From the IMG/VR virus record IMGVR_UViG_3300021387_000544, positions 5,678 to 69,677 of that record: a stretch of 64,000 bases of DNA; one strand, 5' to 3'. The DNA comes from a virus (lineage: Duplodnaviria; Caudoviricetes). Shown here piece after piece: positions 4,192-17,113 of the stretch (position 1 is the first letter of the stretch; each line of letters begins with the position of its first letter). The notes beneath the pieces are model-generated. The model made no database searches, was not told where the DNA came from, and worked only from the letters and a program-made list of their open reading frames with translations. A program made the translations under genes and the position numbers.

Positions 4192-4467
4192 TGATACGAA
4201 TATGATACTGTTTTCAAAAATATTCCCGTAAACGACTGAGTATCAGCGAATGCAGTTATTCCCCTATCGACTACTGAAGGGGTTTTCGAGCCCCTTTTTT
4301 GTTGTACTAAAAATCAGACAGTTACATCTATAACACACTGAAAACCAATAGTATAAAAGAATCAAGACTCTCGAAAAGCCTGTCCTAAAGTGGCTGAAAG
4401 CGGCAGAAAGTGGCGGGTGCTAGTGATACAAAATGTGATACAAAATTTTGGGGAAATGATACAAAAG
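4191..4467. other. Putative attP (core 4258-4274 with flanking arm-type repeats)
   Basis: TGATAC x2 at 4192-4208; GTGATACAAAAT tandem at 4423-4446 plus ATGATACAAAA at 4456; tRNA-like core ATTCCCCTATCGACTAC; IHF-like AATCAGACAGTTA at 4312-4324. Confidence 0.7.
4277..4301 (+). terminator. Intrinsic terminator
   Basis: AAGGGG-ttttcgag-CCCCTT followed by a T run. Confidence 0.7.
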
Positions 4468-4511
4468 CCCTGATTAGGGAATCGAACCCCCACAAAAAAC
4501 AACAATTCATT

Positions 4512-5696
4512 ATGAAAATACCGACAATAAGATTCGTATTCGACAGAAGGAATACTGCAGGAAAGAACGGTAAGGGCTATGTAGAAATGGTGATTACCTG
4601 TGATAAGCAGCGAAAGTTCGTCGCCACTGGTGTTACATGCTATCCGCACAACTGGAAAGGCGACAACAAGCGCAATATCTATGTCTCAGGCACGGGTGCG
4701 GACATGGAACTGAACCAGATACTGCTCACGATTTACCAGAAAGCCTACAGAATCGTCTCGCAGCAGGTCGAGAGCGGTCAGGTGGATATATCTGCCATCC
4801 CTGCGCTTTTGAAGGCTCAGAACGTGGATATGACGTTTCTGGACTATGTCTTCAGACGCATGGAGAAGAAAAACGTCGTGGAATACACCAAGAGGTCGTA
4901 TGTAAGTTTCTACAACAAGTTGTCTGAGTATGGCAGTATCAAGTTCTTCTCAGACATCACGGAAAAGGCCATCAGGGACTTCGACGAGTGGCTGCATGCC
5001 TATAAATGGACCGAGAAGGATGCAAGAGGCAATGATATCGTGAAAACGTACTCACAGGCCACGATAGGCTCGTTTCACAAGAACCTGAAGAACTTCATCG
5101 CTGATGCGGTCGTAGACGGATACCTGAAAGAGAACGTTTATGTGTCGAAGGCCATCAAGGTTGACAAGGGGAAGACCAGGATAGACGAGTTCCTCACGGC
5201 AGAAGAGTTAGAGTCCATAGAGAAGGCCGATATGCACCTCAGGAGCCTCTCGGAGTCAAGAGACCTGTTCCTGATGCAGTGCTACAGCGGTATGGCGTTC
5301 GTGGATCTGATGTCGTTCAATTTCTCTGAGGTGAAGGGCATGGAGGACGGAAGTGTTATCCATGGTGTACGCCACAAGACGGGTACGGAGTTCTCGTTCG
5401 TTCTGACGGACAAGGCAAGGGAGATCCTGGAGAAATACGGCTGGAGGCTGCCAAAACTGCCAAACCAGAAATACAATGCGAGGCTGAAGATGGTTGCCGA
5501 TGCCGCCTGGATAGAAAAGAACCTGACATCGCACATGGGAAGGAGGTCTGCGGGCATGATATGGCTGAACATGGGCATCCCCATCGAGATCGTGAGCCGA
5601 TGTCTTGGCCACTCTTCCATCATAACGACTCAGAAGGCATATGCAAGGGTGCTGGACAAGACCATCGCGGAGGCATTTGCGAAAAAGGCGAAATAG
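4512..5696 (+). CDS. int: Tyrosine integrase (arm-binding, SAM-like and catalytic domains)
   Basis: SGMAFVDL, HMGRR, LGHSSIITTQKAY motifs; start set at ATG 4512. Confidence 0.92.
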   Translation: MKIPTIRFVFDRRNTAGKNGKGYVEMVITCDKQRKFVATGVTCYPHNWKGDNKRNIYVSGTGADMELNQILLTIYQKAYRIVSQQVESGQVDISAIPALLKAQNVDMTFLDYVFRRMEKKNVVEYTKRSYVSFYNKLSEYGSIKFFSDITEKAIRDFDEWLHAYKWTEKDARGNDIVKTYSQATIGSFHKNLKNFIADAVVDGYLKENVYVSKAIKVDKGKTRIDEFLTAEELESIEKADMHLRSLSESRDLFLMQCYSGMAFVDLMSFNFSEVKGMEDGSVIHGVRHKTGTEFSFVLTDKAREILEKYGWRLPKLPNQKYNARLKMVADAAWIEKNLTSHMGRRSAGMIWLNMGIPIEIVSRCLGHSSIITTQKAYARVLDKTIAEAFAKKAK

Positions 5697-5768
5697 AGGT
5701 TTTTGTATCCCAATTGTAGTACTACAGAAGCACTACAGAAGTACTACACCACAAATTTCACTAAAAAA

Positions 5769-5808
5769 AAGAGTCGGGAGGGGAGTTCATTGTTCCCCTA
5801 CCCGCTCT
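5769..5808. terminator. Bidirectional terminator between int and the radical SAM gene
   Basis: GAGTCGGGAGGGGA...TTCCCCTACCCGCTC hairpin with an A run on the left. Confidence 0.6.
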
Positions 5809-5814
5809 GTTGCT

Positions 5815-6774
5815 TTAGAACAGTTCAAGTTGCCGCTTGTCCTGTCTTATGTCCACTTTGCCATAATCCTCAAATCGCGGGCATCTGGCAAATATCATCC
5901 TGTTGTTGCACCATCGCTGAAGGTCATGGTAGACGTGATCGGCATTCTGCTTGTCGTAAATCATCACATATGCCCAATATCCCAGGTCGCGCAGGGTGTA
6001 TATGCGTTCCAGATCCTGCTCAATCGTGCTTGTGTGGTTTACTAGGACATAGACGATGGAGTTATGCAAATGATGCTTTGTTCTGCATATCTCTGAAAAC
6101 ATCTTGAGTTTCGGCAGAATATTGTCCTTGTCCTCATACCTGTCCCATGCGAAATGGATGTCCTTTATGCGGATACGGCTTATTGCCATGCATTTCTCCT
6201 CTGTCAGCATCCGTGCATCAAGTCCCTGGTTGAAGTCTATCAATGCGCGGCTTTCCTCCAATTGGAAGAGCAGGTCTTTCCATTCCTTACAGGCAAGTAT
6301 GTTTGGGTCACACAACACAATATTTTTGCCCCCCCCAGTAAAAAATTCTGACAAATTTGCAACTTTCCTGCTGCACAGGCCCTCCTTCTTCCCGACAATA
6401 CAGAATTGGCATCCACGCGGACATCCTCGCGTCAGGAATCCGTATGCGGTGTGAGTGATCCCGTAGAGCGAATAGTCGGGATAGATATGCTCTATCTCAC
6501 CAGGAAGCGGACTGTCGTCTTCCATTTGATAATGCTCGCCTCCTGCTCCGTGAATAGCATAGCCAGTACCGCCTTTAATGACCTTGTCGGCATTTATGAC
6601 GTAACCGAAGTCGGGAGTGAAGGAAAACACCTTCGACATATACACCAGACTATAGTGCGTGAACGGGTTATACCATTCCACGTCGTCGCCCTGATGCTTG
6701 TGCCATGCCGACAACTTCATCAGAGCCAGGTTTGGGAAGTTGTGTCCGTCAACGTCAATCAGCCCGATTTTCAT
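5815..6774 (-). CDS. Radical SAM protein
   Basis: RGCPRGCQFC CxxxCxxC motif; N-terminus MKIGLIDVDGHNFPNLALMKLS. Confidence 0.85.
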   Translation of the reverse strand: MKIGLIDVDGHNFPNLALMKLSAWHKHQGDDVEWYNPFTHYSLVYMSKVFSFTPDFGYVINADKVIKGGTGYAIHGAGGEHYQMEDDSPLPGEIEHIYPDYSLYGITHTAYGFLTRGCPRGCQFCIVGKKEGLCSRKVANLSEFFTGGGKNIVLCDPNILACKEWKDLLFQLEESRALIDFNQGLDARMLTEEKCMAISRIRIKDIHFAWDRYEDKDNILPKLKMFSEICRTKHHLHNSIVYVLVNHTSTIEQDLERIYTLRDLGYWAYVMIYDKQNADHVYHDLQRWCNNRMIFARCPRFEDYGKVDIRQDKRQLELF

Positions 6775-6989
6775 TTCCTGTATATCTCATTTGCACGATC
6801 CACGATTTTCTGACGGCAGTTACTGTCGAGGTTCGAGTACCAGAACATCGTGCGGTCGACCATCGTGAAGGCATCCAGCCACTTGCCATAGATATGGTTG
6901 CCGAGGTCTCTGCCGAAAAGCGCCCTCGCCTCGTCGGCGCTCCACTTGTTGTAAACGTAGAGCATGAAATTAGTCACTTCGTTGTTCAT
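6771..6989 (-). CDS. Hypothetical protein
   Basis: Coupled by ATGA overlaps to neighbours. Confidence 0.75.
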   Translation of the reverse strand: MNNEVTNFMLYVYNKWSADEARALFGRDLGNHIYGKWLDAFTMVDRTMFWYSNLDSNCRQKIVDRANEIYRK

Positions 6990-7501
6990 TGCTTTTCTGA
7001 TTTTGAGTTATTGTTGCTTTCTTCCTGTCTCTTCCTTCTGGTCACCCATGCCTTCCTGGCTCTCTCCTTCAGCTTCGCAGGGTTCATCCTGCACCAGCGC
7101 TTGACAGACATAATACGCTTCGCTTTGGTCTCATCACTCTCAACGTGACCTTTCTTGAACTCACCGTCTGGATTGTGACGTATCCCCTTCTTGAAGGAAC
7201 CGGGTTTTCCCGTCCTCTTGCTGACAATGTGCGCCAACTGTCTTCGCTCCTCCCATACTGCTGCAAGCCATGCGGGGTCTTTCTCCAGTCCTAACTCCCT
7301 CGCTTTGCGTATCATGGTGCGCTGGCTGACACCTAGGCATCCTGCCAGTTCCTCGTTCAGGGTTGTCGCATAGTGACGCCTGAGGTAGTCGAGCATGTCC
7401 TTGTTCCAGAAGATGCGCGTGGCATATCCCTGGTGCTCCATGATGCGACCGTATGAAGGATGGTATCTCTTGCCGTCCGGTACTTTCTTATATACTGCCA
7501 T
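6986..7501 (-). CDS. Basic DNA-binding protein (HTH + NUMOD3-like motifs)
   Basis: TTLNEELAGCLGVSQRTMIRKARELGL; GSFKKG and GEFKKGH motifs. Confidence 0.7.
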   Translation of the reverse strand: MAVYKKVPDGKRYHPSYGRIMEHQGYATRIFWNKDMLDYLRRHYATTLNEELAGCLGVSQRTMIRKARELGLEKDPAWLAAVWEERRQLAHIVSKRTGKPGSFKKGIRHNPDGEFKKGHVESDETKAKRIMSVKRWCRMNPAKLKERARKAWVTRRKRQEESNNNSKSEKQ

Positions 7502-7507
7502 GGTCGT

Positions 7508-7708
7508 CTACGCTAAATGATGACCAGCCATTTCGGCATAGTCGATGATCTCATAAAGTATCTTCTTGTCGCAATTCCGCATACGGAGGTATTCTGCCCT
7601 GCTGTATGACAGGAGGTCGCCGAGAGTCGTGATGCCGTTTGCGGAAAGGAAACTCAGTGCCCTCACGGTGAGGAGGTCTCGGTTCAGGGGGTCTGACATG
7701 CTGCTCAT
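7508..7708 (-). CDS. RNA polymerase alpha-CTD-like protein
   Basis: LTVRALSFLSANGITTLGDLLSYSRAEYLRMRNCDKKILYEI resembles the RpoA CTD consensus. Confidence 0.7.
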   Translation of the reverse strand: MSSMSDPLNRDLLTVRALSFLSANGITTLGDLLSYSRAEYLRMRNCDKKILYEIIDYAEMAGHHLA

Positions 7709-7914
7709 ATGTCGCCTATGCTTGCCTCCTCCAAGTGATTGTAGTGCTTACAGGTGTTTTTCCACAGGTTCCTGTAATACTCGTTCTCCAACTGTCCGGC
7801 CAGGCTCGAAATCTCAGGCCAGCGCGCCCATGACCATTCCTCGTCCAGGCGGTTTATTCTCTTCAGCAGATCCTTGTCGTGCTGCGACAGGTCTTCATAA
7901 TTTGGTCTTTCCAT
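7705..7914 (-). CDS. Hypothetical protein
   Basis: Start reassigned to MERPNYEDL (aagcgtATG leader). Confidence 0.65.
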   Translation of the reverse strand: MERPNYEDLSQHDKDLLKRINRLDEEWSWARWPEISSLAGQLENEYYRNLWKNTCKHYNHLEEASIGDI

Positions 7915-7942
7915 ACGCTTTAAAGTTTTATATAAACGGTTA

Positions 7943-8536
7943 TTATTTGTCATCCACGAAATAAACACCGGCATTGTGGCCAAAAAGAGTCTTGACAAGC
8001 CTCACCTCGATTTCGTTCTCTGTCTCGTATTCACCGTCTGACGTCTTCAGAATAGCCTTCCATCCGTCATCCTCGTACTCGTCGACGTCATCATCTTCTG
8101 CATGCCACTCGATGCTCCTGACGCCGTCAAAGGGGATCATGCAGCCTCCTATATTGACCATACGGCTGCGGATGAAGGTCTCCAGCTTACGCGAATATGT
8201 CTGCTCGTCATCGTATTCCTGGAGGAACGAAGAGCGTTTAGCGTAGCTGCCGAGGTAGTCTTCTCGGTCGAACTTGACCACGTCTCCGTCAGGGGAAAGG
8301 TGGGACATGTACTCAATGAAATTCCTCACCTTCGGAATCATGTCCTTGATGTACGCAACCTTCTTTGCACGCGCCTCAACGGCCTCCTCTTCCGTGTCGT
8401 AGAACTTAGACCCGAACGGCATGCTTAAAAAGTCGTTTTCACCGGAGACAAGCACCTTGCCGTCTTCAACGATTGCGACCGTCTCATGGACTCCCAGATC
8501 GCGGTCGAGCTCCCACATTTTCTTTTTCTCTATCAT
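7943..8536 (-). CDS. Hypothetical protein
   Basis: 197-aa ORF with tatagcgtATG leader. Confidence 0.8.
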   Translation of the reverse strand: MIEKKKMWELDRDLGVHETVAIVEDGKVLVSGENDFLSMPFGSKFYDTEEEAVEARAKKVAYIKDMIPKVRNFIEYMSHLSPDGDVVKFDREDYLGSYAKRSSFLQEYDDEQTYSRKLETFIRSRMVNIGGCMIPFDGVRSIEWHAEDDDVDEYEDDGWKAILKTSDGEYETENEIEVRLVKTLFGHNAGVYFVDDK

Positions 8537-8996
8537 ACGCTATATTTTCGTTTAAATCAATGTTCAAATTTTAGTGCGCCCTATTGCGAAAATGAGAAAT
8601 CGCAAATTTGACAAAATAATATAATTTGCCCTTTACCTCCGAAAGAGGGGTTCTTAGGGGAGGATTGTATCATCTGGATTAAATTTCCTTCAGATCCGAG
8701 CAACAGATAGGACTCTCCAATTGCAGTCTAAGTCTTTCGCTTTACTTTTACCCTCTGGGCTTCGGTATGACCTGTCGTCAGGGCTGGACGTTGCAGGATT
8801 AGCGTTCTGTTACTAATCAGGAGCTTTTTGTCTTTTTGGTTTTGCATGCTGTTAAGTGGCTACGGATGGAACTTTCAGCAAAACGCCTAAAATGGCGAAA
8901 CCCCCGCAACGTGTCGTAGTTCGTGCAGGGGTTTCTATATTGTGCTCCTAGGAGCCAATTTTCGATAAGACTGCTATCGCTACGACTCGATTGCGC

Positions 8997-9006
8997 TGCA
9001 AAGATA
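8997..9006 (-). promoter_or_regulatory. Bacteroidota -7 promoter box
   Basis: TATCTTTGCA on minus strand upstream of a ~460-nt non-coding leader. Confidence 0.6.
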
Positions 9007-9162
9007 TGGATTAAATTTAATCCCTGCAAATAGTGTAAAAAACCGTTAAACCACATTACTCCACTTTCCTCCGCTTTGTGCCGCTTTTAACATTTCGACT
9101 TTATACTTTATTAACATCGCAGACCCTCAGAAATCAAGGGAACCAGTTGCGAAAATGGAATT

Positions 9163-9555
9163 TTACCATTTTATGCCGTTGCGCCTGAAGATGTCCATGA
9201 GGCTGTTAAGCGACCCCATGCCGACATTACGGCATTTATAGAAATCGGCCAAAGTATACTCCTTCAGGAATGTCCTGACGGTAAACCCGACTCCCAGGTA
9301 CTTGCCGCAGTATCCCCAGCCTTTAACGGGCTTCACCTCCATGGCCTTCGCGATTTTGAGCACCCTCATCGGTGCCCCGTTCTCCTTCAGGAACTCCCTG
9401 AACGGCATGTCCAGGATATCGCCGTGATCCGTGATTGAATTTTCTGCCGTATCCGTCGCGTCGGCAATTTCCAAAATGATGTCCTTGATCTCCGGGCACT
9501 CGCGGTACATGGCCGTGAGCACTCTCTTCATGATTTCTCTTTCTGAATTGTTCAT
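9163..9555 (-). CDS. Hypothetical protein with C-terminal alpha-CTD/HhH-like motif
   Basis: FTVRTFLKEYTLADFYKCRNVGMGSLNSL. Confidence 0.7.
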   Translation of the reverse strand: MNNSEREIMKRVLTAMYRECPEIKDIILEIADATDTAENSITDHGDILDMPFREFLKENGAPMRVLKIAKAMEVKPVKGWGYCGKYLGVGFTVRTFLKEYTLADFYKCRNVGMGSLNSLMDIFRRNGIKW

Positions 9556-9606
9556 AATCTGTAATCTTTGTACGCCTTATGGCGAAAATGAAAATATAAC
9601 CCTTAT

Positions 9607-10458
9607 TTAGAATTGTTCAAAATACTGCATGGCAAGTTCCGTCATGGACTCCATACCGGCACAGATGTAGCGCTCCGTCATCGTCGTAGAGGAGTGCCCG
9701 GCCAGTCGCGAAACGAGCAGGAGGTCACGGCAGCGCAAATAGAGATTCGTGCAGAAGGAACGGCGCGAGGTGTGTGACGAAACTGCCTCATACTTCGGTC
9801 CCGTCCAGAAGGCTCCGTTTCGGTACAGCTGGATCTCCTGGTCGATGTCGCACAGGCTGCAGATGGTGCGGATGGTAGCGTTGAAGGTGTTGTCGCTGAC
9901 CTCATGACGGTATGCCTGTGCGAAGGTGGTGCCTGTGGCGAAAAGGATCTGGCGTGCAACTGGCGATAACGGCAACTCCGCCTTGATATGCGTCTTCTGC
10001 GATACGTACACCAGATGGCCCGTAGGAGTCACGTTTGCAGTCGTAAAGCGCGAATAGTCGCTGTGCCTGGCTCCGGTCAGGCATCCCAGAATGAACTGCT
10101 GCTGCACGATGGCCTCCGTCAGGGTATCCGGGCGGTATGCGATAATACGCCTGATCTCCGACTCCGTGAGATAGGTCTGCTGTGACTCGTCGTCTCGTAC
10201 TGCCAGGCTCTTGCGCCAGTCCCTGGGCAGATCCACCTCGTCGGTGTACTGCTCGATCACGGCCTTAAGTTTGGCGGTATATTGCCGGGCTGATGACTGT
10301 GCCATATCGTTGCACAGCCAGTCGGCAAAACGGCTCATGTTGGCCTTCGTGAGAGACTCCCAGGCAAAGGGTGTGCCTGTTGCGATAGTCCACTTTTCGG
10401 CGATCTTGCCGTTTTTCGGATACTTGGCCAAAAGGGCCTCTGATAGCGTCGTAGTCAT
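9607..10458 (-). CDS. Second tyrosine recombinase (short, no arm-binding domain)
   Basis: TGARHSD, HTSRRSFCTNL, AGHSSTTMTERY catalytic motifs; 283 aa. Confidence 0.9.
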   Translation of the reverse strand: MTTTLSEALLAKYPKNGKIAEKWTIATGTPFAWESLTKANMSRFADWLCNDMAQSSARQYTAKLKAVIEQYTDEVDLPRDWRKSLAVRDDESQQTYLTESEIRRIIAYRPDTLTEAIVQQQFILGCLTGARHSDYSRFTTANVTPTGHLVYVSQKTHIKAELPLSPVARQILFATGTTFAQAYRHEVSDNTFNATIRTICSLCDIDQEIQLYRNGAFWTGPKYEAVSSHTSRRSFCTNLYLRCRDLLLVSRLAGHSSTTMTERYICAGMESMTELAMQYFEQF

Positions 10459-10628
10459 TTTGATGCCTCCCTGATTAAATTGTTAATAAACTCCGTCGTC
10501 GTCTGGTCGCCCTTTGCGGACTGTATCCAGTCGTACAGGCTCTTTTCCAGGTGGAAATTGACCCGGACGGCCTCCGTGGATCGTGCCGGGCGCCCTACTC
10601 TCTTTGTACCGTTTTTCTGTGCAGCCAT
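10455..10628 (-). CDS. Ribbon-helix-helix DNA-binding protein (57 aa)
   Basis: Manual translation MAAQKNGTKRVGRPARSTEAVRVNFHLEKSLYDWIQSAKGDQTTTEFINNLIREASK; ATGA overlap with the recombinase start. Confidence 0.7.
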   Translation of the reverse strand: MAAQKNGTKRVGRPARSTEAVRVNFHLEKSLYDWIQSAKGDQTTTEFINNLIREASK

Positions 10629-10649
10629 ATTGCGAAAATGAATTTAGCG

Positions 10650-10880
10650 TTATTTGTCCCTGAATAATTCGACGTAATAATAAAAACCGTCTATTTCGAC
10701 CCTGATAGTGCCGCGAAGCTCCTTGCCGGGCATGTTGCGGAAATAGGTCTTCACGCTGTATCTTTCAGCCAGTTGCCCGGCCATCGCCAAAAAGGCGCTT
10801 TTCGCCGATTGCTCCTTTTTCCAGATCTCTTCGTGACGTTTGCCAATAGGCAAATTATCCTTAATGATATACTTTCCCAT
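10650..10880 (-). CDS. Small early hypothetical protein
   Basis: 76 aa, co-oriented array. Confidence 0.7.
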   Translation of the reverse strand: MGKYIIKDNLPIGKRHEEIWKKEQSAKSAFLAMAGQLAERYSVKTYFRNMPGKELRGTIRVEIDGFYYYVELFRDK

Positions 10881-10950
10881 ATATGCCGTTTATTTTGATT
10901 GTGAGACGTTAAAATGATTATTCCCTGTAACTGTGCGCCCTGTTGCGATA

Positions 10951-11133
10951 TCAGGCCGCAGCGGCCTTTTTACGCCGTTTCCGGGCTTTTCTCTTATACC
11001 GCTTATCGATCCTTTTCCAGTCGATACCGTAAACGAAAAGATAATAGACCGCCATACCCGGCAAAAACCACCACGGCAAAAGGCATGCGGCCAGGAACAC
11101 CAACAGGATCGCCCAAACATATACACCTAACAT
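10951..11133 (-). CDS. Small membrane protein with basic tail
   Basis: Hydrophobic N-terminal half, RKARKRRKK C-terminus. Confidence 0.6.
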   Translation of the reverse strand: MLGVYVWAILLVFLAACLLPWWFLPGMAVYYLFVYGIDWKRIDKRYKRKARKRRKKAAAA

Positions 11134-11149
11134 AATAACCTCCTATCTT

Positions 11150-11368
11150 TTAGTTGTTGATCACCATACGCGAAATATCACGCGTTTTAACTTCATTTCC
11201 CTGATCGTCGTACATGGTCACGAAAACTCCCGATACTGCAGCGCCTGAGGCCTGATAAAACGAAATAGTATCCGTGAGCTCCGTATGATCCAGGATCATG
11301 CCGGCCGTTTCCTGTTCGCCATCAATTGTAACGGCGTCCACCGAATAGACAAAATAGTACTTTTCCAT
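11150..11368 (-). CDS. Small early hypothetical protein
   Basis: 72 aa. Confidence 0.7.
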   Translation of the reverse strand: MEKYYFVYSVDAVTIDGEQETAGMILDHTELTDTISFYQASGAAVSGVFVTMYDDQGNEVKTRDISRMVINN

Positions 11369-11392
11369 ATCTGATAATGCTTAAATGATTAA

Positions 11393-11614
11393 TTACTGTT
11401 TTTCCTCAAAAAAGATATAGCAGCTTTCCGGGCTGATGACGCCGGAGTTATTAAAAAGATCCTGATACTGTGACGGCGTTAATACGTCGGCGTAATCGTA
11501 ACCAAAATCACGCTCAAACTTTGCCAGCTCTATACGCTCCGCCGCCGACATGTTTTTTAATTCGTCCAAATTATAAAGATCGGATGAAAAAACCAAAATA
11601 ATAATATTTTCCAT
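11393..11614 (-). CDS. Small early hypothetical protein
   Basis: Start reassigned to MENIIILVF (tatcattATG leader). Confidence 0.7.
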   Translation of the reverse strand: MENIIILVFSSDLYNLDELKNMSAAERIELAKFERDFGYDYADVLTPSQYQDLFNNSGVISPESCYIFFEEKQ

Positions 11615-11725
11615 AATGATATAACTTTTAAAATGATACGTTTTCTTTTGTCTCTGGCCGCCGATCATGTGCCGGGATGAATAAGTCCCGGACACAGCGA
11701 AACGGCCGTAAATTCGGCCTGTATT

Positions 11726-11974
11726 CTATTCGGGCCAGGCCGTTTTAATCCCGTTTTCTATAAGAGTACACAGGGCCACCGGATCACCTATATATTTTTT
11801 TGCCACCTTTGTAGTTTTCCGGCGACGGCCCGTTATTATCATTTTGTCGCCGTCGAATTCAATTATAACATTTTCTTTAACGGCCAGCGTATTCAGTTTA
11901 CAAAGATCTTTGCAGCATTTTTCCGCCGTCGAATAGATAACACTACTTTTCCAGATATCGATATTAATTTGCAT
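11726..11974 (-). CDS. Small early hypothetical protein
   Basis: 82 aa, tatcattATG leader. Confidence 0.7.
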   Translation of the reverse strand: MQINIDIWKSSVIYSTAEKCCKDLCKLNTLAVKENVIIEFDGDKMIITGRRRKTTKVAKKYIGDPVALCTLIENGIKTAWPE

Positions 11975-12082
11975 AATGATATATTTTTAGTCGTTATTAC
12001 TTCTTTTTGTCGTCGCTGTTGGCGTTTCCGGCTAATCCTGTATAACTAACAGGCCGGGGCCAGAAAACGCCGTTAAAACCGT

Positions 12083-12292
12083 TTATTTGCTCATTTTGTT
12101 ATAGATCTTTTGCAGCAGCATATAAAAACCAAATCCCCTGGAGTGCAAAACGGGTTTTTTGTATCCGTATACCTTTGCCAGCTCATTATATTTTGTGAGC
12201 TCACAGTGATTTAATAACATGACGTCGCGCGAAAAATCGACACCGTCGGCAACCAGTTTTAAAACCAGATCCGTATATTTATTTATATTCAT
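12083..12292 (-). CDS. Small early hypothetical protein
   Basis: 69 aa, conserved AT-rich leader. Confidence 0.7.
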   Translation of the reverse strand: MNINKYTDLVLKLVADGVDFSRDVMLLNHCELTKYNELAKVYGYKKPVLHSRGFGFYMLLQKIYNKMSK

Positions 12293-12395
12293 GACTATAT
12301 ATTTTTAAATTGTTAATACTCTTTTCTTTTCCCTGTGCCGGGCTGATCCGGTGACACCGTACAATTGTGCCACCGGCGCCCGGATCGGCCGTTAT

Positions 12396-12527
12396 TTAGT
12401 CGTTTTCATCATTTATAAAGTGATCGCTTAATTTTGTCTGACCTGTAGTATACAAAGCATTAAACAGGCTGAAAACGTCGACACGATTAAAACCGGCATT
12501 TTTGTTGTTGTTACTTTTCTTTTCCAT
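12396..12527 (-). CDS. Very small early hypothetical protein (43 aa)
   Basis: Start reassigned to MEKKSNNN (tatcattATG leader). Confidence 0.55.
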   Translation of the reverse strand: MEKKSNNNKNAGFNRVDVFSLFNALYTTGQTKLSDHFINDEND

Positions 12528-12670
12528 AATGATAATATATTTAATTGTTAATACTGTTTTGTTTAATCCCTGATCCCCGGCCGTTATTTCCCGGCCGTCT
12601 CTATCTGTTCCCGATATATTGCGTAAAAAACACAAAATAAAACGAATAGTAAAAACATGATCCCAAATAT

Positions 12671-12928
12671 TTAGCAGTTTATTGATACTTCATTTATAAC
12701 GGCCTGTGCCCAATACTTTTGCGACGTTTCGCCGATCTCAAACCACAGTATATTTTTACCGTCGTACCCGTCGTATGCTGCAGCGTCTGGCGCCTGTTGC
12801 ACCTGGTATTTATATTCTTCATTAAAACGTATCTTTGCGTCTATCAGATCCGCAAATAACGTCGTTTCTGTATTCAGTACACCGTCGAAACATGTTACCA
12901 CTATTAAAGCAAATAATTTGTTATTCAT
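12671..12928 (-). CDS. Small early hypothetical protein
   Basis: 85 aa. Confidence 0.7.
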   Translation of the reverse strand: MNNKLFALIVVTCFDGVLNTETTLFADLIDAKIRFNEEYKYQVQQAPDAAAYDGYDGKNILWFEIGETSQKYWAQAVINEVSINC

Positions 12929-13040
12929 ATCTTTAAATATTTAATGTTATTACTTATTTCTTTTGCCTGTAATCGATTTAATTAGTGTTTAGGTAGCGAC
13001 GGCCGCCCGGATGATCCGGACGCCGCCACAGGCCTAATAA

Positions 13041-13892
13041 TTACGCTGATATTCTACAGTCATTTTCTTTAATGATAAACGGCGTATCTGGCGTTATATA
13101 TGTGCGCACACCGTTAACCGTTTTATAGTCATTGGCGACGGGATGATAAGAGAGGCCCACAATACTTTTACCCGGGTCCATATATCTCATATCGTAGTTA
13201 TTACCGTTTACAACTTTATAACCGGCGAAAGATCCCGGCAATTTATTCCCGGCAAAAACAACAGCCACCCGGCCGCCGGCCTGCAGATACTTTTCGGCCG
13301 TTTTCCAGTTGTAGCCGTCAAAGCTGAAAGTGAGATCATAATTATTATATTTGCCTAATAACTTAATTCTGTTTGGCACCTTTGTATAATCGTAAAATTG
13401 TACGTCGGGAAATAATTCTAAAATATTCAGGCCTGTAACAGGATCAACAAACAACTCCGGCGAAAGATCCGACGTACAGTTTAAACGTACCGAAAACGGG
13501 ACATTTGCAGCCAGCGCGCGCGCCTGTGCTCTCTTAATTTCGTGTACCAAAATACGCATAAATAACGGCCTATTTTCGTAAAATAAACGCGTTTTCTTCA
13601 CTCTGGACTGATTAATTTTTGATAACTCTTTCCCGCGTGCCAATTCATCAATTTTATTTTGTCCTGATCCGTTTAAACAGAATTCGTGACAATGTGCACC
13701 GCCGGCGCAAACCTGGTGCCCGGACATATTCCAGGGTGCAAGATACAGGCCGTATGTTAACGTGCCGGCCGTTTCGCTTAATTCCAGCTTGTGAGAAGTC
13801 GAGACGCCACCCAAATAGGAAACGTGAAACGCTTTCTTAAATGCTGTATAGCTCATATCTTTTGCAAGATCATTAATTACTAAATTTTTCAT
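13041..13892 (-). CDS. GP88-like / radical-SAM-like Fe-S phage protein
   Basis: C-x5-C-x3-C (CAGGAHCHEFC), VRLNCTSD, FYDYTK, LTFS, VAVVF, IVGL motifs. Confidence 0.7.
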   Translation of the reverse strand: MKNLVINDLAKDMSYTAFKKAFHVSYLGGVSTSHKLELSETAGTLTYGLYLAPWNMSGHQVCAGGAHCHEFCLNGSGQNKIDELARGKELSKINQSRVKKTRLFYENRPLFMRILVHEIKRAQARALAANVPFSVRLNCTSDLSPELFVDPVTGLNILELFPDVQFYDYTKVPNRIKLLGKYNNYDLTFSFDGYNWKTAEKYLQAGGRVAVVFAGNKLPGSFAGYKVVNGNNYDMRYMDPGKSIVGLSYHPVANDYKTVNGVRTYITPDTPFIIKENDCRISA

Positions 13893-14021
13893 AATTACTG
13901 CAAATTAGTTGTTTAATTCAAATCTTTTATTTACCTTTGCAGCCCGTAACAGACTTTTAAAGGTTTGTTATTAATTTGTTTCTGATCCGGGCACCTGTGA
14001 AGATCCCCGGATCTTCTGTTA

Positions 14022-14306
14022 TTAAACGGTATACCAATTATAAGAGTTAATAACGGCGCCGTTATAGATCGGATCCCAATTCTTTTGAGAAACATAAACG
14101 CCCAATGCATTAAGACGGGATCTGGTAGTAACACTATTCCACCCGGCCAGCGTGAAACGCTTAACACCCTGATAAACTGCAAAAATACAGTTACCGTGCA
14201 AATACACCTTAACGCCTGTTGTGTCTGCAGTTACTACTGTATTACCACTCCTGAAGTTGCGGCCGGATCTAACAGCCTGTAACATGTTCTTTTCAATCTG
14301 TTTCAT
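14022..14306 (-). CDS. Conserved small phage early protein
   Basis: VYLHGNCI...GWNSVTTRSRLNAL pattern; first gene after promoter at 14352. Confidence 0.75.
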   Translation of the reverse strand: MKQIEKNMLQAVRSGRNFRSGNTVVTADTTGVKVYLHGNCIFAVYQGVKRFTLAGWNSVTTRSRLNALGVYVSQKNWDPIYNGAVINSYNWYTV

Positions 14307-14351
14307 AATTCAGTACTTTTAAATTGTTATTAATTTGTTTCTTTTATCTGT

Positions 14352-14361
14352 TGCAAAGATA
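14352..14361 (-). promoter_or_regulatory. Bacteroidota -7 promoter box driving the small-gene array
   Basis: TATCTTTGCA on minus strand. Confidence 0.65.
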
Positions 14362-14525
14362 CGACTATTTAATTAAATGTGCAAGAAAATAGACGAAAAA
14401 ATAACCCTAAAACACAAAAATATCTTCATTTTCTTGCGTGATCAGAAAATAATAACTAACTTTGTAAACTCTAAGATTGCAATTTAACCACATTTTAATA
14501 AATCAATCATCAAATTAAAATTAAT

Positions 14526-15068
14526 ATGGAATATTCGGTAAATACACAAATTTTACAGGCTAAATATAATATAACCGTAAATGAAGTTATATTTGCATAC
14601 CTGATCGCCGCCGGACTGGATCCCGCGGACGCACACTATTTTATCTATAGCGCTGGCGCCGGATCAGGACTGACAACAGCAGAACAACAGACCGCCAGAG
14701 CAAAAGAGTTATTAAAACTCAATCCGGGGCTATCACTGTTAATCCAGGAAATAAAACGCAAACAGTTTAAACAAACAGCCGCACAAACGGCCGCCAGCCT
14801 ACAGGATCGAGAGCTAACAGAAGAAGAAAAAGAAAAGTATACAACCAGAAAAGGACTAATAGAGGAGATTATAAAAGATTTGCCGTTAATGCCAGGAAAG
14901 GACCGGGCAAATGTCCTTCAATCACTTGCAAAATTACAGGGACTAGACAAACCGGATGAAACAGAAGAAGAAGAAAGGCGTATTTATGTACTCCGATATT
15001 TGTCACACTGCAGATCCTGTAAATTAATGAAGTTATATTTGCAGATCCAGGCAGAGGAAAAGCCCTAA
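14526..15068 (+). CDS. Putative terminase small subunit
   Basis: N-terminal helical/HTH-like part, coiled coil, LQSLAKLQGLD motif; no other terS candidate near terL. Confidence 0.5.
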   Translation: MEYSVNTQILQAKYNITVNEVIFAYLIAAGLDPADAHYFIYSAGAGSGLTTAEQQTARAKELLKLNPGLSLLIQEIKRKQFKQTAAQTAASLQDRELTEEEKEKYTTRKGLIEEIIKDLPLMPGKDRANVLQSLAKLQGLDKPDETEEEERRIYVLRYLSHCRSCKLMKLYLQIQAEEKP

Positions 15069-15469
15069 AACGGCCTATTTTATTTCATTTTATAGGTATA
15101 AAACGCAAAACGGCCGTAATATGCTGTATTTCTGCAGTTTTGCCAGGCACCCGGACACCCCGCACGACACCCACCACCCCCCAAACCATACATATATAAG
15201 GCGCATTCGTTCTCTCTCAAAATTTTTTCCGGATTTTTTTCTGATTATTTTTTTTTCTGTATTAGTGAACTCTTGTTTTTGTTTTTTCACCTGGAGTTCA
15301 CTATGTTTTTGCGGAGTGTTAGTTGTTAACATTTGGTTGTTGAATTGTTAACGGGAGTGTTAAAAATCTGCGTTTTTTGCAGTATTTTAGTTGTTATTTT
15401 GCAATTATCGTTGTTTTGGCAGGGGTGTTGGTATGAATATTATAATAAATAGGAATGGTATATTGGTTA

Positions 15470-15795
15470 TGGTCTGGTGAAGTGGATTATGTGTTATTTC
15501 ACCAAGATTTCACGGATAAATTTTGCATAATCTGCTGATTGTCAAGTGTTTGGTTAAGTATTGTGCATTGGTGAATAAAGATTTATTAGCATATATTTAT
15601 TTCTTTTAGTATTCTACTCTTTAAGTGGAAAAAAGTTCATTTTGGGGTTCACGTTTTCACTTTTGCGGTTTATCGGTTTGATTATCAATCACTTAGCGGT
15701 GTAGTTTTGCGTAAAAAAAGTGAAAAGTGGCGTGTAAAAGTTCACTGTTTGGTGAAAAATGCAGTTTATTTCATTTGGTTTTTCACTAAAATCTT
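15470..15795. repeat. AT-rich region with about 10 GTGAA/TTCAC repeats in both orientations (putative replication origin)
   Basis: Copies near 15476, 15497, 15508, 15571, 15648, 15656, 15720, 15741, 15752, 15782; IHF consensus TATCAATCACTTA at 15683-15695. Confidence 0.55.
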
Positions 15796-15797
15796 CG

Positions 15798-15807
15798 TAT
15801 ATTTGCA
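15798..15807 (+). promoter_or_regulatory. Bacteroidota -7 promoter box for the middle operon
   Basis: TATATTTGCA. Confidence 0.65.
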
Positions 15808-15835
15808 GACGAAAATTTAATCGTTATCTGTGTGT

Positions 15836-16333
15836 ATGAGTGAAAGACTGGTTATAGGCATTGATCCAGGGCGTCATGGCGGCATTGCCGCAGTGTGTTC
15901 TGACGGTGTGGTCATGGATGTCGTTCAGATGCCTGAGACGGCGCAGGACATACTTCTTACTCTCCGTGAGTTCGTCTGTTCCTTCAGGCGTGACGGCGGC
16001 GACGTGGTGTGTTTTGTGGAGAAGGTTGGCGGCATTCCCGGTCAGGGTGCTTCGAGTGCGTTCAACTTCGGCAAGGGGTGCGGTTGGCTTGAGATGTGTC
16101 TTCTTGCCTTGGAGGTGAGGACGGTGTACGTCACTCCGCAGCGCTGGCAGAAGGTGTACGGTGTAGGCAGTTCTTCTATTACGAGGTCGACTGCTGCCGA
16201 GAAGCGCGATCACAAGAATGCGCTGAAGGCGGTGGCTCAGAGGCTGTACCCTTCGCTGGGTCGTCGTGTGACTCTTCGGACGTGTGATGCTTTGTTGATT
16301 GCCGGCTATGGTCTCAAGGAAGAATCGAGGTGA
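15836..16333 (+). CDS. RuvC-like Holliday junction resolvase
   Basis: VIGIDPG, FVEKV, SAFNFG, CDALLIA motifs. Confidence 0.88.
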   Translation: MSERLVIGIDPGRHGGIAAVCSDGVVMDVVQMPETAQDILLTLREFVCSFRRDGGDVVCFVEKVGGIPGQGASSAFNFGKGCGWLEMCLLALEVRTVYVTPQRWQKVYGVGSSSITRSTAAEKRDHKNALKAVAQRLYPSLGRRVTLRTCDALLIAGYGLKEESR

Positions 16334-16461
16334 CGGAGTTCAGGACTCTGACGGTTCGCGGGAGAAGGCCCACGCTTGGGACTTGTCCTTACTGGAAGGA
16401 GAGCAGGTGTGTGCTGCTGAGTCAGCGCGCGTGTGTACATTATAGGAAAAGAGTATAGCGT

Positions 16462-16956
16462 ATGAAACCAAGTAAGAGAATCATGTGTCCGGACTGCGGG
16501 AGGCCTAAGATGCTCTTTGAGACGGAGCGCAAGGCGAACGGCTTCATCAGGTGGAACGGTGACGAGTTGCACGTCCCTGAGGGTTGCGAGTTGCGTGCGT
16601 ACTACTGCCCTTCGTGTTGCGGATGGCACATATCGCACCAGAGGCACAGAAAGTCGTATGACCAGCAGACGAACAACCTCATAGGTGCGTTTGAGCGGTC
16701 GAGGACTTCGGTGTCGAAGATTGACAGGCTCATCAACAAGGATCTGTTCGACCTTGAGGAGAAGAGGCTCATGGAGAAGGCGCAGAGGGTGTATGACGAC
16801 ATACCCGATGAGATAAAGGGTGTCGGAAAGAAAGGCGGCATCAAGAAGTTCCTTGACGGCTATTTCGTCGGCAACGGCATCCACGACAGGAGCGGAAGGC
16901 TGAGAGGTGCCGTATATAAGGTTTTTGAGAAGGACACGGATAAAAGGAGGACATAA
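16462..16956 (+). CDS. Hypothetical protein with Zn-ribbon-like Cys pairs
   Basis: CPDC...YYCPSCCGWH. Confidence 0.75.
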   Translation: MKPSKRIMCPDCGRPKMLFETERKANGFIRWNGDELHVPEGCELRAYYCPSCCGWHISHQRHRKSYDQQTNNLIGAFERSRTSVSKIDRLINKDLFDLEEKRLMEKAQRVYDDIPDEIKGVGKKGGIKKFLDGYFVGNGIHDRSGRLRGAVYKVFEKDTDKRRT

Positions 16957-17113
16957 ACTGTTTAGGTATATTCTTTGGTTATGAATAGGACGCTGACTGA
17001 CAAGGATATTATCGAGGACTACAGGAGGTTCCTCCGGCATGAGTCGATGCGTGCGAATGTGATGCAGGACTATGTGGCGATGGTGATTATTAACGAGATA
17101 AACAGATAGGAAT

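Follow-up and report, generated by a model that had tools for sequence, protein, structure and literature searches.

The described systems closest to the locus considered here include: (i) classical morons, which carry their own promoter and factor-independent terminator, (ii) the early genes of phage T7, in which RNase III hairpins give rise to discrete mRNAs with a protective 3′ stem, and (iii) the phage antisense regulators P22 sar, lambda OOP, P1/P7 c4 and P4 CI RNAs. In Bacteroidales, rAID-1 arrays are recognized by a 5′ XerD-like recombinase that shares 44% identity or more with the B. fragilis reference and stands ahead of two or more co-directional genes whose GC content does not exceed 41% (bioRxiv 10.1101/471110). 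The locus compared with these systems is an array of small genes on the minus strand of a 64-kb window, the whole stretch of DNA analysed, which lies within a complete 69.7-kb IMG/VR virus record of a member of the Caudoviricetes (IMGVR_UViG_3300021387_000544, positions 5,678 to 69,677). The array combines a shared leader ahead of the start codons, GC-rich hairpins between the genes and a candidate antisense small RNA, and is followed by a tyrosine recombinase gene.

The best explanation of the stretch is that it forms the hypervariable portion, next to the promoter, of an early leftward operon in a temperate phage of the ruminant gut with Bacteroidota-type signals. The explanation as a whole, which joins a hypervariable early operon, a Shine-Dalgarno (SD)-independent leader, mRNA hairpins, an antisense RNA and the exchange of single genes, is given a probability of roughly 0.55. 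Proteins of the window include a portal, a large terminase, a D5-type primase-helicase, an Rha regulator, a Holliday-junction resolvase and a dUTPase. Two tyrosine recombinases are also encoded, of which one (4410-5696) is an integrase of 428 aa that carries a SAM_5 domain and the other (9607-10458) an arm-less enzyme of 283 aa. In Bacteroidota, the -7 element of the primary sigma factor is TAnnTTTG (as cited in PMC7366714), and a scan of the window finds such boxes at the divergent gene heads. Near-identical pieces of the window are contained in sheep, bovine and other gut metagenomes.

Gene exchange in the probable early leftward operon

The array holds ten or eleven co-oriented minus-strand genes (14306-10455) that start at 14306, 13892, 12928, 12527, 12292, 11974, 11614, 11368, 11133, 10880 and 10628, followed by the 283-aa recombinase with its start at 10458. 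The initial annotation, made from the letters of this DNA, had described about ten co-oriented, short, AT-rich genes; number and orientation stand, but only genes 1-8 are AT-rich (GC at third codon positions, GC3, of 0.39-0.53 vs 0.6-0.8 in core genes). Genes 9-10, the small open reading frame (ORF) at 10628-10455 and the recombinase gene are of native composition, tightly spaced and free of hairpins. The CpG observed/expected ratio is 1.52 in the block vs ~1.0 elsewhere, a CpG excess common to the arrays of relatives, and all eight CCGGATC/GATCCGG words of the window fall within 11779-14665. By composition, the first seven or eight genes are a foreign block, low in GC3 and rich in CpG. At a coarser scale, 10000-15000 is a compositional island (CpG observed/expected 1.4-1.6 vs ~1.0; TpA 0.99 vs 0.72), 3.7 kb of which hold 36 of 151 CCGG and 35 of 152 GATC sites, mostly in coding sequence. 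The enrichment of these sites was considered as functional and dropped, as it follows from the CpG-rich signature of the block and is mostly coding.

The simplest reading of the array is a single operon that would be driven by a single promoter. The scan finds no TAnnTTTG on the coding strand of the internal array gaps, and the TATCTTTGCA head is kept in L004, L084, L085, L088 and L104. Loci with L numbers are relatives of the window: L084-L089 and the metagenomic L090-L123 were retrieved through the recombinase, and L004 through the GP88 gene (gene 2). The array itself has zero blastn matches among 50,697 phage records, and the 180-aa divergent protein, used as query, retrieves no related loci. 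The loci retrieved through the recombinase and the GP88 gene have three anchors in common with the window, which are conserved in L084-L087, namely the promoter region (14300-15260), the recombinase (9607-10458) and the large integrase (4258-5688), and between conserved anchors the relatives carry almost wholly different genes. The tyrosine recombinase, which had been correctly placed near the distal end, is the most conserved gene of the operon (PF00589, E 2.8e-10; 71-85% identical in L084-L087).

Contigs from four other ruminant-gut metagenomes, compared with window positions 5000-17000, contain joints at which single genes are skipped. At joint 11984->12313 (run X4 contig), gene 5 and hairpin 5 are cleanly gone and 13 leader-like letters lie between; the junction falls within sequence that combines leaders 5 and 6, past TAAC. 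Joint 14019->14317 (run X7 contig) skips gene 1 with the leader core and hairpin 1 both retained, and joint 10641->10890 (run X4 contig) skips gene 10 (10642-10889). Two further joints, 6990->7509 and 7911->8534, each leave out one gene downstream of the recombinase, where hairpins are absent, and the latter lies exactly between two copies of AGCGTATG. L088 and L104, which share 95-97% nucleotide identity, differ by a replacement that runs from the ATG after a conserved leader to the next gene start. On account of these joints and this replacement, genes appear to be swapped as whole units, the exchange taking place at short gene-start repeats whether hairpins are present or not, and the best explanation leaves the tyrosine recombinase uninvolved in the exchange. 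The modular, shuffle-able array of the initial annotation is thus upheld in that relatives differ between anchors and joints skip genes, but only one joint is shown to be a clean loss and no promoter is detectable in the modules. Similarly, gene content varies among relatives as had been anticipated, but the resolved breakpoint lies in a leader rather than at a hairpin, and joints of gene size are likewise present in hairpin-free stretches.

A second variable accessory region lies between the two recombinases. Its 3.9 kb (5700-9600) shrink to 0.5 kb in L084 (8831-9317) and to 1.2 kb in L085, and metagenome variants of the region show gene-sized joints.

Leader, hairpins and a candidate antisense RNA

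The leader GTAWTAAC(A)ATTTAAAA...ATTATG, in this or a closely similar form, is found ahead of the ATGs at 14306, 12928, 12527, 12292 and 11974; it is weaker before ATG 11614, and a further copy lies at 10475-10494, ahead of the recombinase gene. Inside 10488-14332 are 13 of the 15 minus-strand TAWTAAC words of the window. The element is not specific to the cassettes, as it also precedes the late genes 35180, 36533, 54529 and 56010. At genes 1 and 35180 it is downstream of a canonical -7 box and, thus, inside the 5′ untranslated region (UTR). Across 320 upstream regions, drawn from the window and 15 related loci, TAAC forms a sharp peak at -23 to -21 from the ATG (39 of 108 occurrences), and positions -14 to -10, -6 and -3 show an excess of A. 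In the leader, AACAATTTAAAA ends 10-11 nt upstream of the ATG. The A pattern is that cited for SD-less Bacteroidetes mRNAs (PMC7366714). Because the element is genome-wide, with TAAC ~22 nt before the ATG and A-rich sequence at -14 to -10, the leader is most likely an SD-independent translation start region that serves as a ribosome-loading signal, not a promoter or a cassette-specific site. The TAAC part resembles the T7 gene-10 'epsilon' enhancer (TTAACTTTA), a likeness taken here as a lead only. A second recurrent start context, (AT)AGCGTATG, is found at starts 668(-), 8536(-), 7911(-) and 16462(+), in genes of native composition.

The six GC-rich palindromes listed by the initial annotation are all intergenic and all fold as RNA (-19.9 to -31.5 kcal/mol for gap segments of 51-86 nt), with z-scores of -2.4 to -6.1 vs dinucleotide shuffles. 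Folding of 9600-14600 in sliding 50-nt segments likewise places the top four structures of the AT-rich part between genes. A stop codon ends a few bases before each hairpin, and on the far side come an A-rich tract and the leader, much as had been described: the A-rich tract is present at 6/6 and the leader is real at five or six genes. The absence of a U tract after the hairpins on the coding (minus) strand is also confirmed (0/6). Canonical terminators with a U tract do exist elsewhere in the same phages, so that the array hairpins represent a class of their own. The order of gene, GC-rich hairpin, A-rich tract, (T)AACAATTTAAA-type leader and ATTATG is repeated in L004, L086, L087 and L089, where the hairpin sequences are unrelated.

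The two strands of a hairpin differ in stability through G-U pairs, by which the fold of one strand outdoes that of the other. The sense strand is more stable, by a mean of -3.9 kcal/mol, in 12 of the 15 hairpins of the window and relatives other than small-RNA terminators, a set that includes one 22.6-bit hit of the small-RNA model (L086 7940-7975) and one small-RNA terminator (L088 7718-7752); five of seven small-RNA terminators favour the antisense strand. At hairpin 2 the sense strand is the more stable by 10.2 kcal/mol. The strand bias points to a role of the hairpins in the sense mRNA, where hairpins 2-6 may be intercistronic stabiliser, processing or attenuator stems, by analogy with the RNase III sites of T7 early RNA, and are unlikely to be DNA recombination sites.

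Hairpin 1 is the predicted terminator of a candidate small RNA of the opposite strand. The antisense promoter matches a cassette that is repeated ahead of early genes in L005, L006, L007 and L013. A covariance model of the RNA, built from seven phages, scores the window copy at 71.4 bits (E 6e-9) and finds the unit in 14 loci at E <= 0.01 (the window and 13 others); most homologues have canonical TACCTTTGCA or TATCTTTGCA promoters, a TTG(G) at -33 and T5-7 tracts. The terminator helix covaries, with 87.9% of cells paired vs 58.6% in shuffles and 48 double-change cells, a level reached by 0/500 shuffles. Rfam has no match anywhere in 9500-15500, the small RNA included.

The linker of the RNA is complementary to a word in the gene-1 leader. 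The word, AGAAACAAATTAATAACAA, has only two copies in 64 kb (14342-14324 and 13983-13965), where none are expected by chance, and the duplex of the small RNA with the gene-1 leader (-33.8 kcal/mol, z -7.7) is the best among all leaders and spans -35 to ~-9. In the relatives, the linker complement is similarly an exact 13-19-nt word in the 5′ UTR behind the head promoter of the same phage, and the word differs from phage to phage. Sliding duplex energies for the small RNAs of relatives are uninformative owing to GC-rich chance hits, and exact words were compared instead; in this unbiased comparison of seven independent phages, the words are 15-19 nt at the own locus vs 9-13 nt across loci. One phage (L112) has its target in the leader of an internal gene, not in the head 5′ UTR. 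In L088 the two word copies are 6.6 kb apart, which excludes simple duplication via gene 1 insertion. The small RNA probably regulates the leftward operon by antisense pairing, in the manner of P22 sar, lambda OOP and P1 c4.

Other elements of this kind are noted in the window and its relatives. A second small-RNA-like unit (8890-9006, minus strand) has a TATCTTTGCA promoter (9006-8997), ~100 nt and a terminator hairpin with U tract (8931-8901), followed by a conserved non-coding stretch to ~8600; in L096 and L098 this element is likewise present past the recombinase. The 79-aa ORF at 8817-9056 is doubtful, as this unit overlaps it. Rfam returned only a sub-threshold snoRNA-like chance hit on 5500-9700. 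In the GP88-bearing L005, L006, L007, L011 and L013, nearly every early gene has a promoter of TTTGG, ~19 nt and TACCTTTGCA with an AGGAGA-type start, a promoter-repeat design that differs from the hairpin-plus-leader design of the window. An inverted repeat (13932-13953 / 14340-14361) was considered as an invertible switch and rejected, since the repeat is the two promoter boxes themselves.

In the proposed mechanism, P_L would head ten or eleven small genes that end in the conserved Xer-like recombinase, and the leader would load ribosomes without an SD sequence. Hairpins 2-6 would act in the sense mRNA through 3′-end protection, processing or attenuation, such that each inserted gene may be expressed on its own. 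The small RNA would be made from its own strong promoter (13932-13941, +) and end at hairpin 1, while pairing of its linker with the P_L 5′ UTR and the cis site would block translation or lead to cleavage of the transcript. Single genes would be gained and lost by recombination at repeated gene-start sequences, as in T4-type promoter-early stem-loops (PeSLs) and phage mosaicism. A bolder extension, which is tentative and would not be bet upon at even odds, is that the ~80-nt RNA forms an immunity-type 'anti-leader' switch that silences the accessory operon, pairing with the P_L 5′ UTR and the cis site and, more weakly, with other TAAC-type leaders; the linker/UTR words would then set specificity groups among ruminant-gut Bacteroidota phages, and TAAC at -22 would be an undescribed non-SD translation enhancer.

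Array genes and neighbouring elements

Features of the array are collected below.

Table. Coordinates of the promoters, genes, hairpins and small-RNA parts of the array in the 64-kb window
Feature	Position	Strand	Remarks
Rightward-operon box TAACTTTG	14457-14464	+	Back to back with P_L; drives replication and recombination genes
Head promoter P_L, -7 box TATCTTTG	14354-14361	-	From TAnnTTTG scan
Proposed target, 19-nt word AGAAACAAATTAATAACAA	14324-14342	-	Gene 1 5′ UTR
Gene 1, 94 aa	14022-14306	-	Kyano_Gp96 family, function unknown; PF23790, E 2.5e-18
Candidate antisense small RNA, ~80 nt	13943-14023	+	5′ stem-loop, U-rich linker, terminator hairpin
Hairpin 1, predicted small-RNA terminator	13984-14013	+	Followed by T-rich tail TTCTGTTATT
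Small-RNA linker	13965-13983	+	
Antisense promoter TACCTTTGCA	13932-13941	+	TTG at -33, attcaaa-type spacer
Gene 2, 283 aa	13041-13892	-	GP88 family, function unknown; PF17338, E 7.9e-27; phrog_1617, E 1.2e-41
Hairpin 2, intercistronic stem-loop	12990-13032	-	-30.7 kcal/mol, z -4.5
Gene 3, 85 aa, ORFan	12671-12928	-	Leader AAGTAATAACATTAAATATTTAAAGATATG
Hairpin 3, short 6-bp stem	12578-12597	-	
Gene 4, 43 aa	12396-12527	-	ATG fixed by frame; L004 homologue 61% identical
Hairpin 4, bulged stem-loop	12337-12391	-	-31.5 kcal/mol, z -2.7
Gene 5, 69 aa, ORFan	12083-12292	-	Lost with hairpin 5 in a natural variant
Hairpin 5, bulged stem-loop	12021-12071	-	-25.8 kcal/mol, z -2.4
Gene 6, 82 aa, ORFan	11726-11974	-	
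Hairpin 6, composite stem-loop	11656-11720	-	-30.3 kcal/mol, z -3.3
Genes 7-10	11614-11393, 11368-11150, 11133-10951, 10880-10650	-	Tight packing, without hairpins
Small ORF and 283-aa Xer-like tyrosine recombinase	10628-10455 and 10458-9607	-	ATGA overlap

Eight of the ten array proteins lack a significant family match, and where matches are clear, in the remaining two, the families (Kyano_Gp96 and GP88) are of unknown function. Gene 2 is 76% identical to its L004 homologue; neither a solved relative nor a function was found for the GP88-like protein. Gene 3 has no relatives in IMG/VR, and in L004 it is missing from the interval between the GP88 gene and the gene-4 homologue. No IMG/VR relatives are found for gene 5, and as a group, genes 3, 5 and 6 have none or marginal ones only. 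The start region of gene 9 is of the GGAGG type. A GGAGG- or GGAGA-type sequence, e.g., AGATAGGAGGTTATTATG, stands 6-10 nt before several distal starts (11133, 10458 and distal genes of relatives). Three direct minus-strand copies of ATTTTCGCNATANGGCG are present at 10623-10639, 9573-9589 and 8577-8593, i.e., at the start of the small ORF, 18 nt past the recombinase stop and before gene 8536. In L004, repeats of a similar type (TTTTTCGCGATAGGGCGG) stand ahead of the recombinase. The ATTTTCGCNATANGGCG repeats may be an operator or the recombinase's own site.

Rival readings and known systems

Several points weigh against the reading of the stretch as a hypervariable operon with SD-independent leaders, mRNA hairpins and an antisense RNA. 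Joint 11984->12313 is the only one shown as a clean loss and resolved to the base; 14019->14317, 10641->10890 and 7911->8534 may be replacements rather than losses. The U tract behind the terminator of the window small RNA is weak, the fold of this terminator is better on the sense strand, and the covarying word could instead be the operator of a protein. To our knowledge, TAAC at -22 has no established function. The GGAGG-like starts of some distal genes are unusual for Bacteroidota and would be unexpected in a host that does not use SD pairing. Two features, position and strand asymmetry, suggest the role of hairpins 2-6, and within the window a clear asymmetry among these is seen for hairpin 2 only. 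The host phylum, probably Bacteroidota, is read from promoter type and integrase domain, because queries of reference genomes with the 283-aa recombinase and the large integrase gave no prophage relative. The use of the promoters, the ends and processing of the RNAs and even the existence of the small RNA are predicted here.

The integron-like system that the initial annotation had thought possible would make the hairpins attC-like sites of site-specific cassettes, with the Xer-like recombinase moving single-gene circles as in integrons and rAID-1. The layout is alike, in that co-oriented small low-GC genes, a hairpin after the ORFs, repeated intergenic sequence and an Xer-like recombinase share an operon, and a XerD-like recombinase, co-directional low-GC genes and repetitive intergenic sequence are what define rAID-1 (bioRxiv 10.1101/471110); natural variants, moreover, show gene-sized joints. 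This origin is nevertheless highly improbable. The integron-integrase (IntI) model TIGR02249 gives 19.9 bits where the cut-off is 265, generic Xer models rank best but all stay far under their cut-offs, and 10400-14600 contains no inverted RYYYAAC...GTTRRRY pairs within 40-150 nt on either strand. TAAC is direct, not inverted, on both sides of the hairpins, and a signature of TAAC/GTTA cores, looked for at hairpins 2-6, is missing there. The recombinase is last and co-oriented, its adjoining genes are conserved while the promoter-proximal ones vary, and the genes downstream of it (9555-5815) are not low in GC (~0.48-0.50; GC3 0.59-0.73). The sole resolved junction falls downstream of TAAC in A/T-rich leader and not at a fixed core, joints of the same type occur in hairpin-free parts, and G-U pairs tip the stability of the hairpins towards the sense RNA strand. 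True PeSL or moron units, with a promoter in each leader for a host or phage-modified polymerase, a terminating or attenuating hairpin and every gene its own transcription unit, are an unlikely alternative of a different sort. The succession of stop, stem-loop, AT-rich conserved element and start in a hyperplastic ORFan region fits the description of PeSLs (PMC2839356), one deletion junction lies within the repeated element, the composition is unlike that of the neighbours as for morons, and the GP88-bearing L005-L013 have a full TTTGG-N19-TACCTTTGCA promoter before nearly every early gene. However, TAnnTTTG is missing from the coding strand of all internal gaps, and the TAAC element has a fixed spacing to the ATG and, at genes 1 and 35180, is within the UTR past a canonical -7 box; the hairpins, in addition, lack U tracts though these phages do have canonical U-tract terminators.

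The main rival to the antisense-RNA reading is that the 13-19-nt word is a DNA operator for a phage-specific regulator, i.e., a determinant of immunity specificity, rather than a site of RNA pairing, in which case the unit may still be transcribed. Covariation of phage-specific words at two sites near promoters is indeed the pattern of heteroimmune operators, and the small ORF beside the recombinase or the unassigned 180-aa protein at P_R could be regulators. The words, however, are not palindromic; one copy always occupies the unpaired linker that joins the two hairpins of a unit with promoter and terminator, and the other is in a 5′ UTR, 16-29 nt ahead of the ATG. The distance of 6.6 kb between the L088 copies and the internal gene leader targeted in L112, with no promoter in the 45 nt upstream, also argue against an operator, which is considered improbable. 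Very unlikely is that the hairpins mainly stop transcription from the opposite direction as antisense-strand terminators or insulators. A moderately T-rich stretch follows each hairpin on the plus strand, a simple scan called plus-strand terminators at 11704-11719 and 13999-14016, and several array hairpins of relatives have T5-7 on the antisense strand. Those of the relatives with clear antisense U tracts are, however, mostly small-RNA terminators, the remaining hairpins fold better on the sense strand (12/15), and a scan with inspection finds no credible antisense promoter upstream of hairpins 2-6. Plus-strand TAnnTTTG words in genes 3-5 were weighed as antisense promoters and rejected, as they have no -33 element and are expected from T-rich composition.

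The analysis removes a tempting but wrong label, that of a phage integron, and shows how accessory genes are packaged and exchanged in temperate phages that probably infect Bacteroidota, a phylum with non-textbook translation and promoter signals. A leader motif at a fixed distance from the ATG may load ribosomes without an SD sequence, and the candidate antisense RNA has a pairing word that varies in step with its target across seven or more independent phages. If the predictions are true, the small RNA would be a simple handle by which early accessory genes of a phage are switched on or off, and a new RNA family for the annotation of gut and rumen viromes.

Compared to known systems, the array shares single traits with many. 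Like the P22 sar, OOP, c4 and CI RNAs, the candidate RNA is short, with its own promoter and terminator, and is antisense in an early/immunity operon with phage-specific pairing to a start region; unlike these, it has no sequence or Rfam relation to them, has a perfect cis site plus a separate trans site in the head 5′ UTR, is predicted from sequence and belongs to a host with SD-independent initiation. Bulged hairpins of 40-60 nt without U tracts lie between consecutive early genes as do the RNase III sites of T7; by contrast, hairpins 1 and 3 (2/6 stems) are too short for RNase III and the sequences are unrelated. Integrons and rAID-1 likewise have a co-oriented low-GC array, repetitive intergenic sequence and an Xer-like recombinase in the operon (bioRxiv 10.1101/471110), but the IntI signature and inverted cores are lacking here and the recombinase is at the 3′ end of the low-GC array; with the low-GC genes upstream of the recombinase, the layout is not that of rAID-1. 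As in the morons and mosaicism of lambdoid phages and HK97, small genes of foreign composition stand between conserved genes and are exchanged at gene boundaries, whereas one head promoter and non-canonical hairpins set the array apart. T4-type PeSLs (PMC2839356, PMC4122927) differ in that the phage here is temperate and probably infects Bacteroidota, the internal modules have no detectable promoter, the element is ATG-spaced and in UTRs, and the stem-loops have no U tract. The hyperplastic ORFan location and the module-mediated indels are common to the two: in both, a stem-loop and a conserved AT-rich element lie between small ORFans of a hyperplastic early region, and the indel junctions between relatives fall inside the repeated element.

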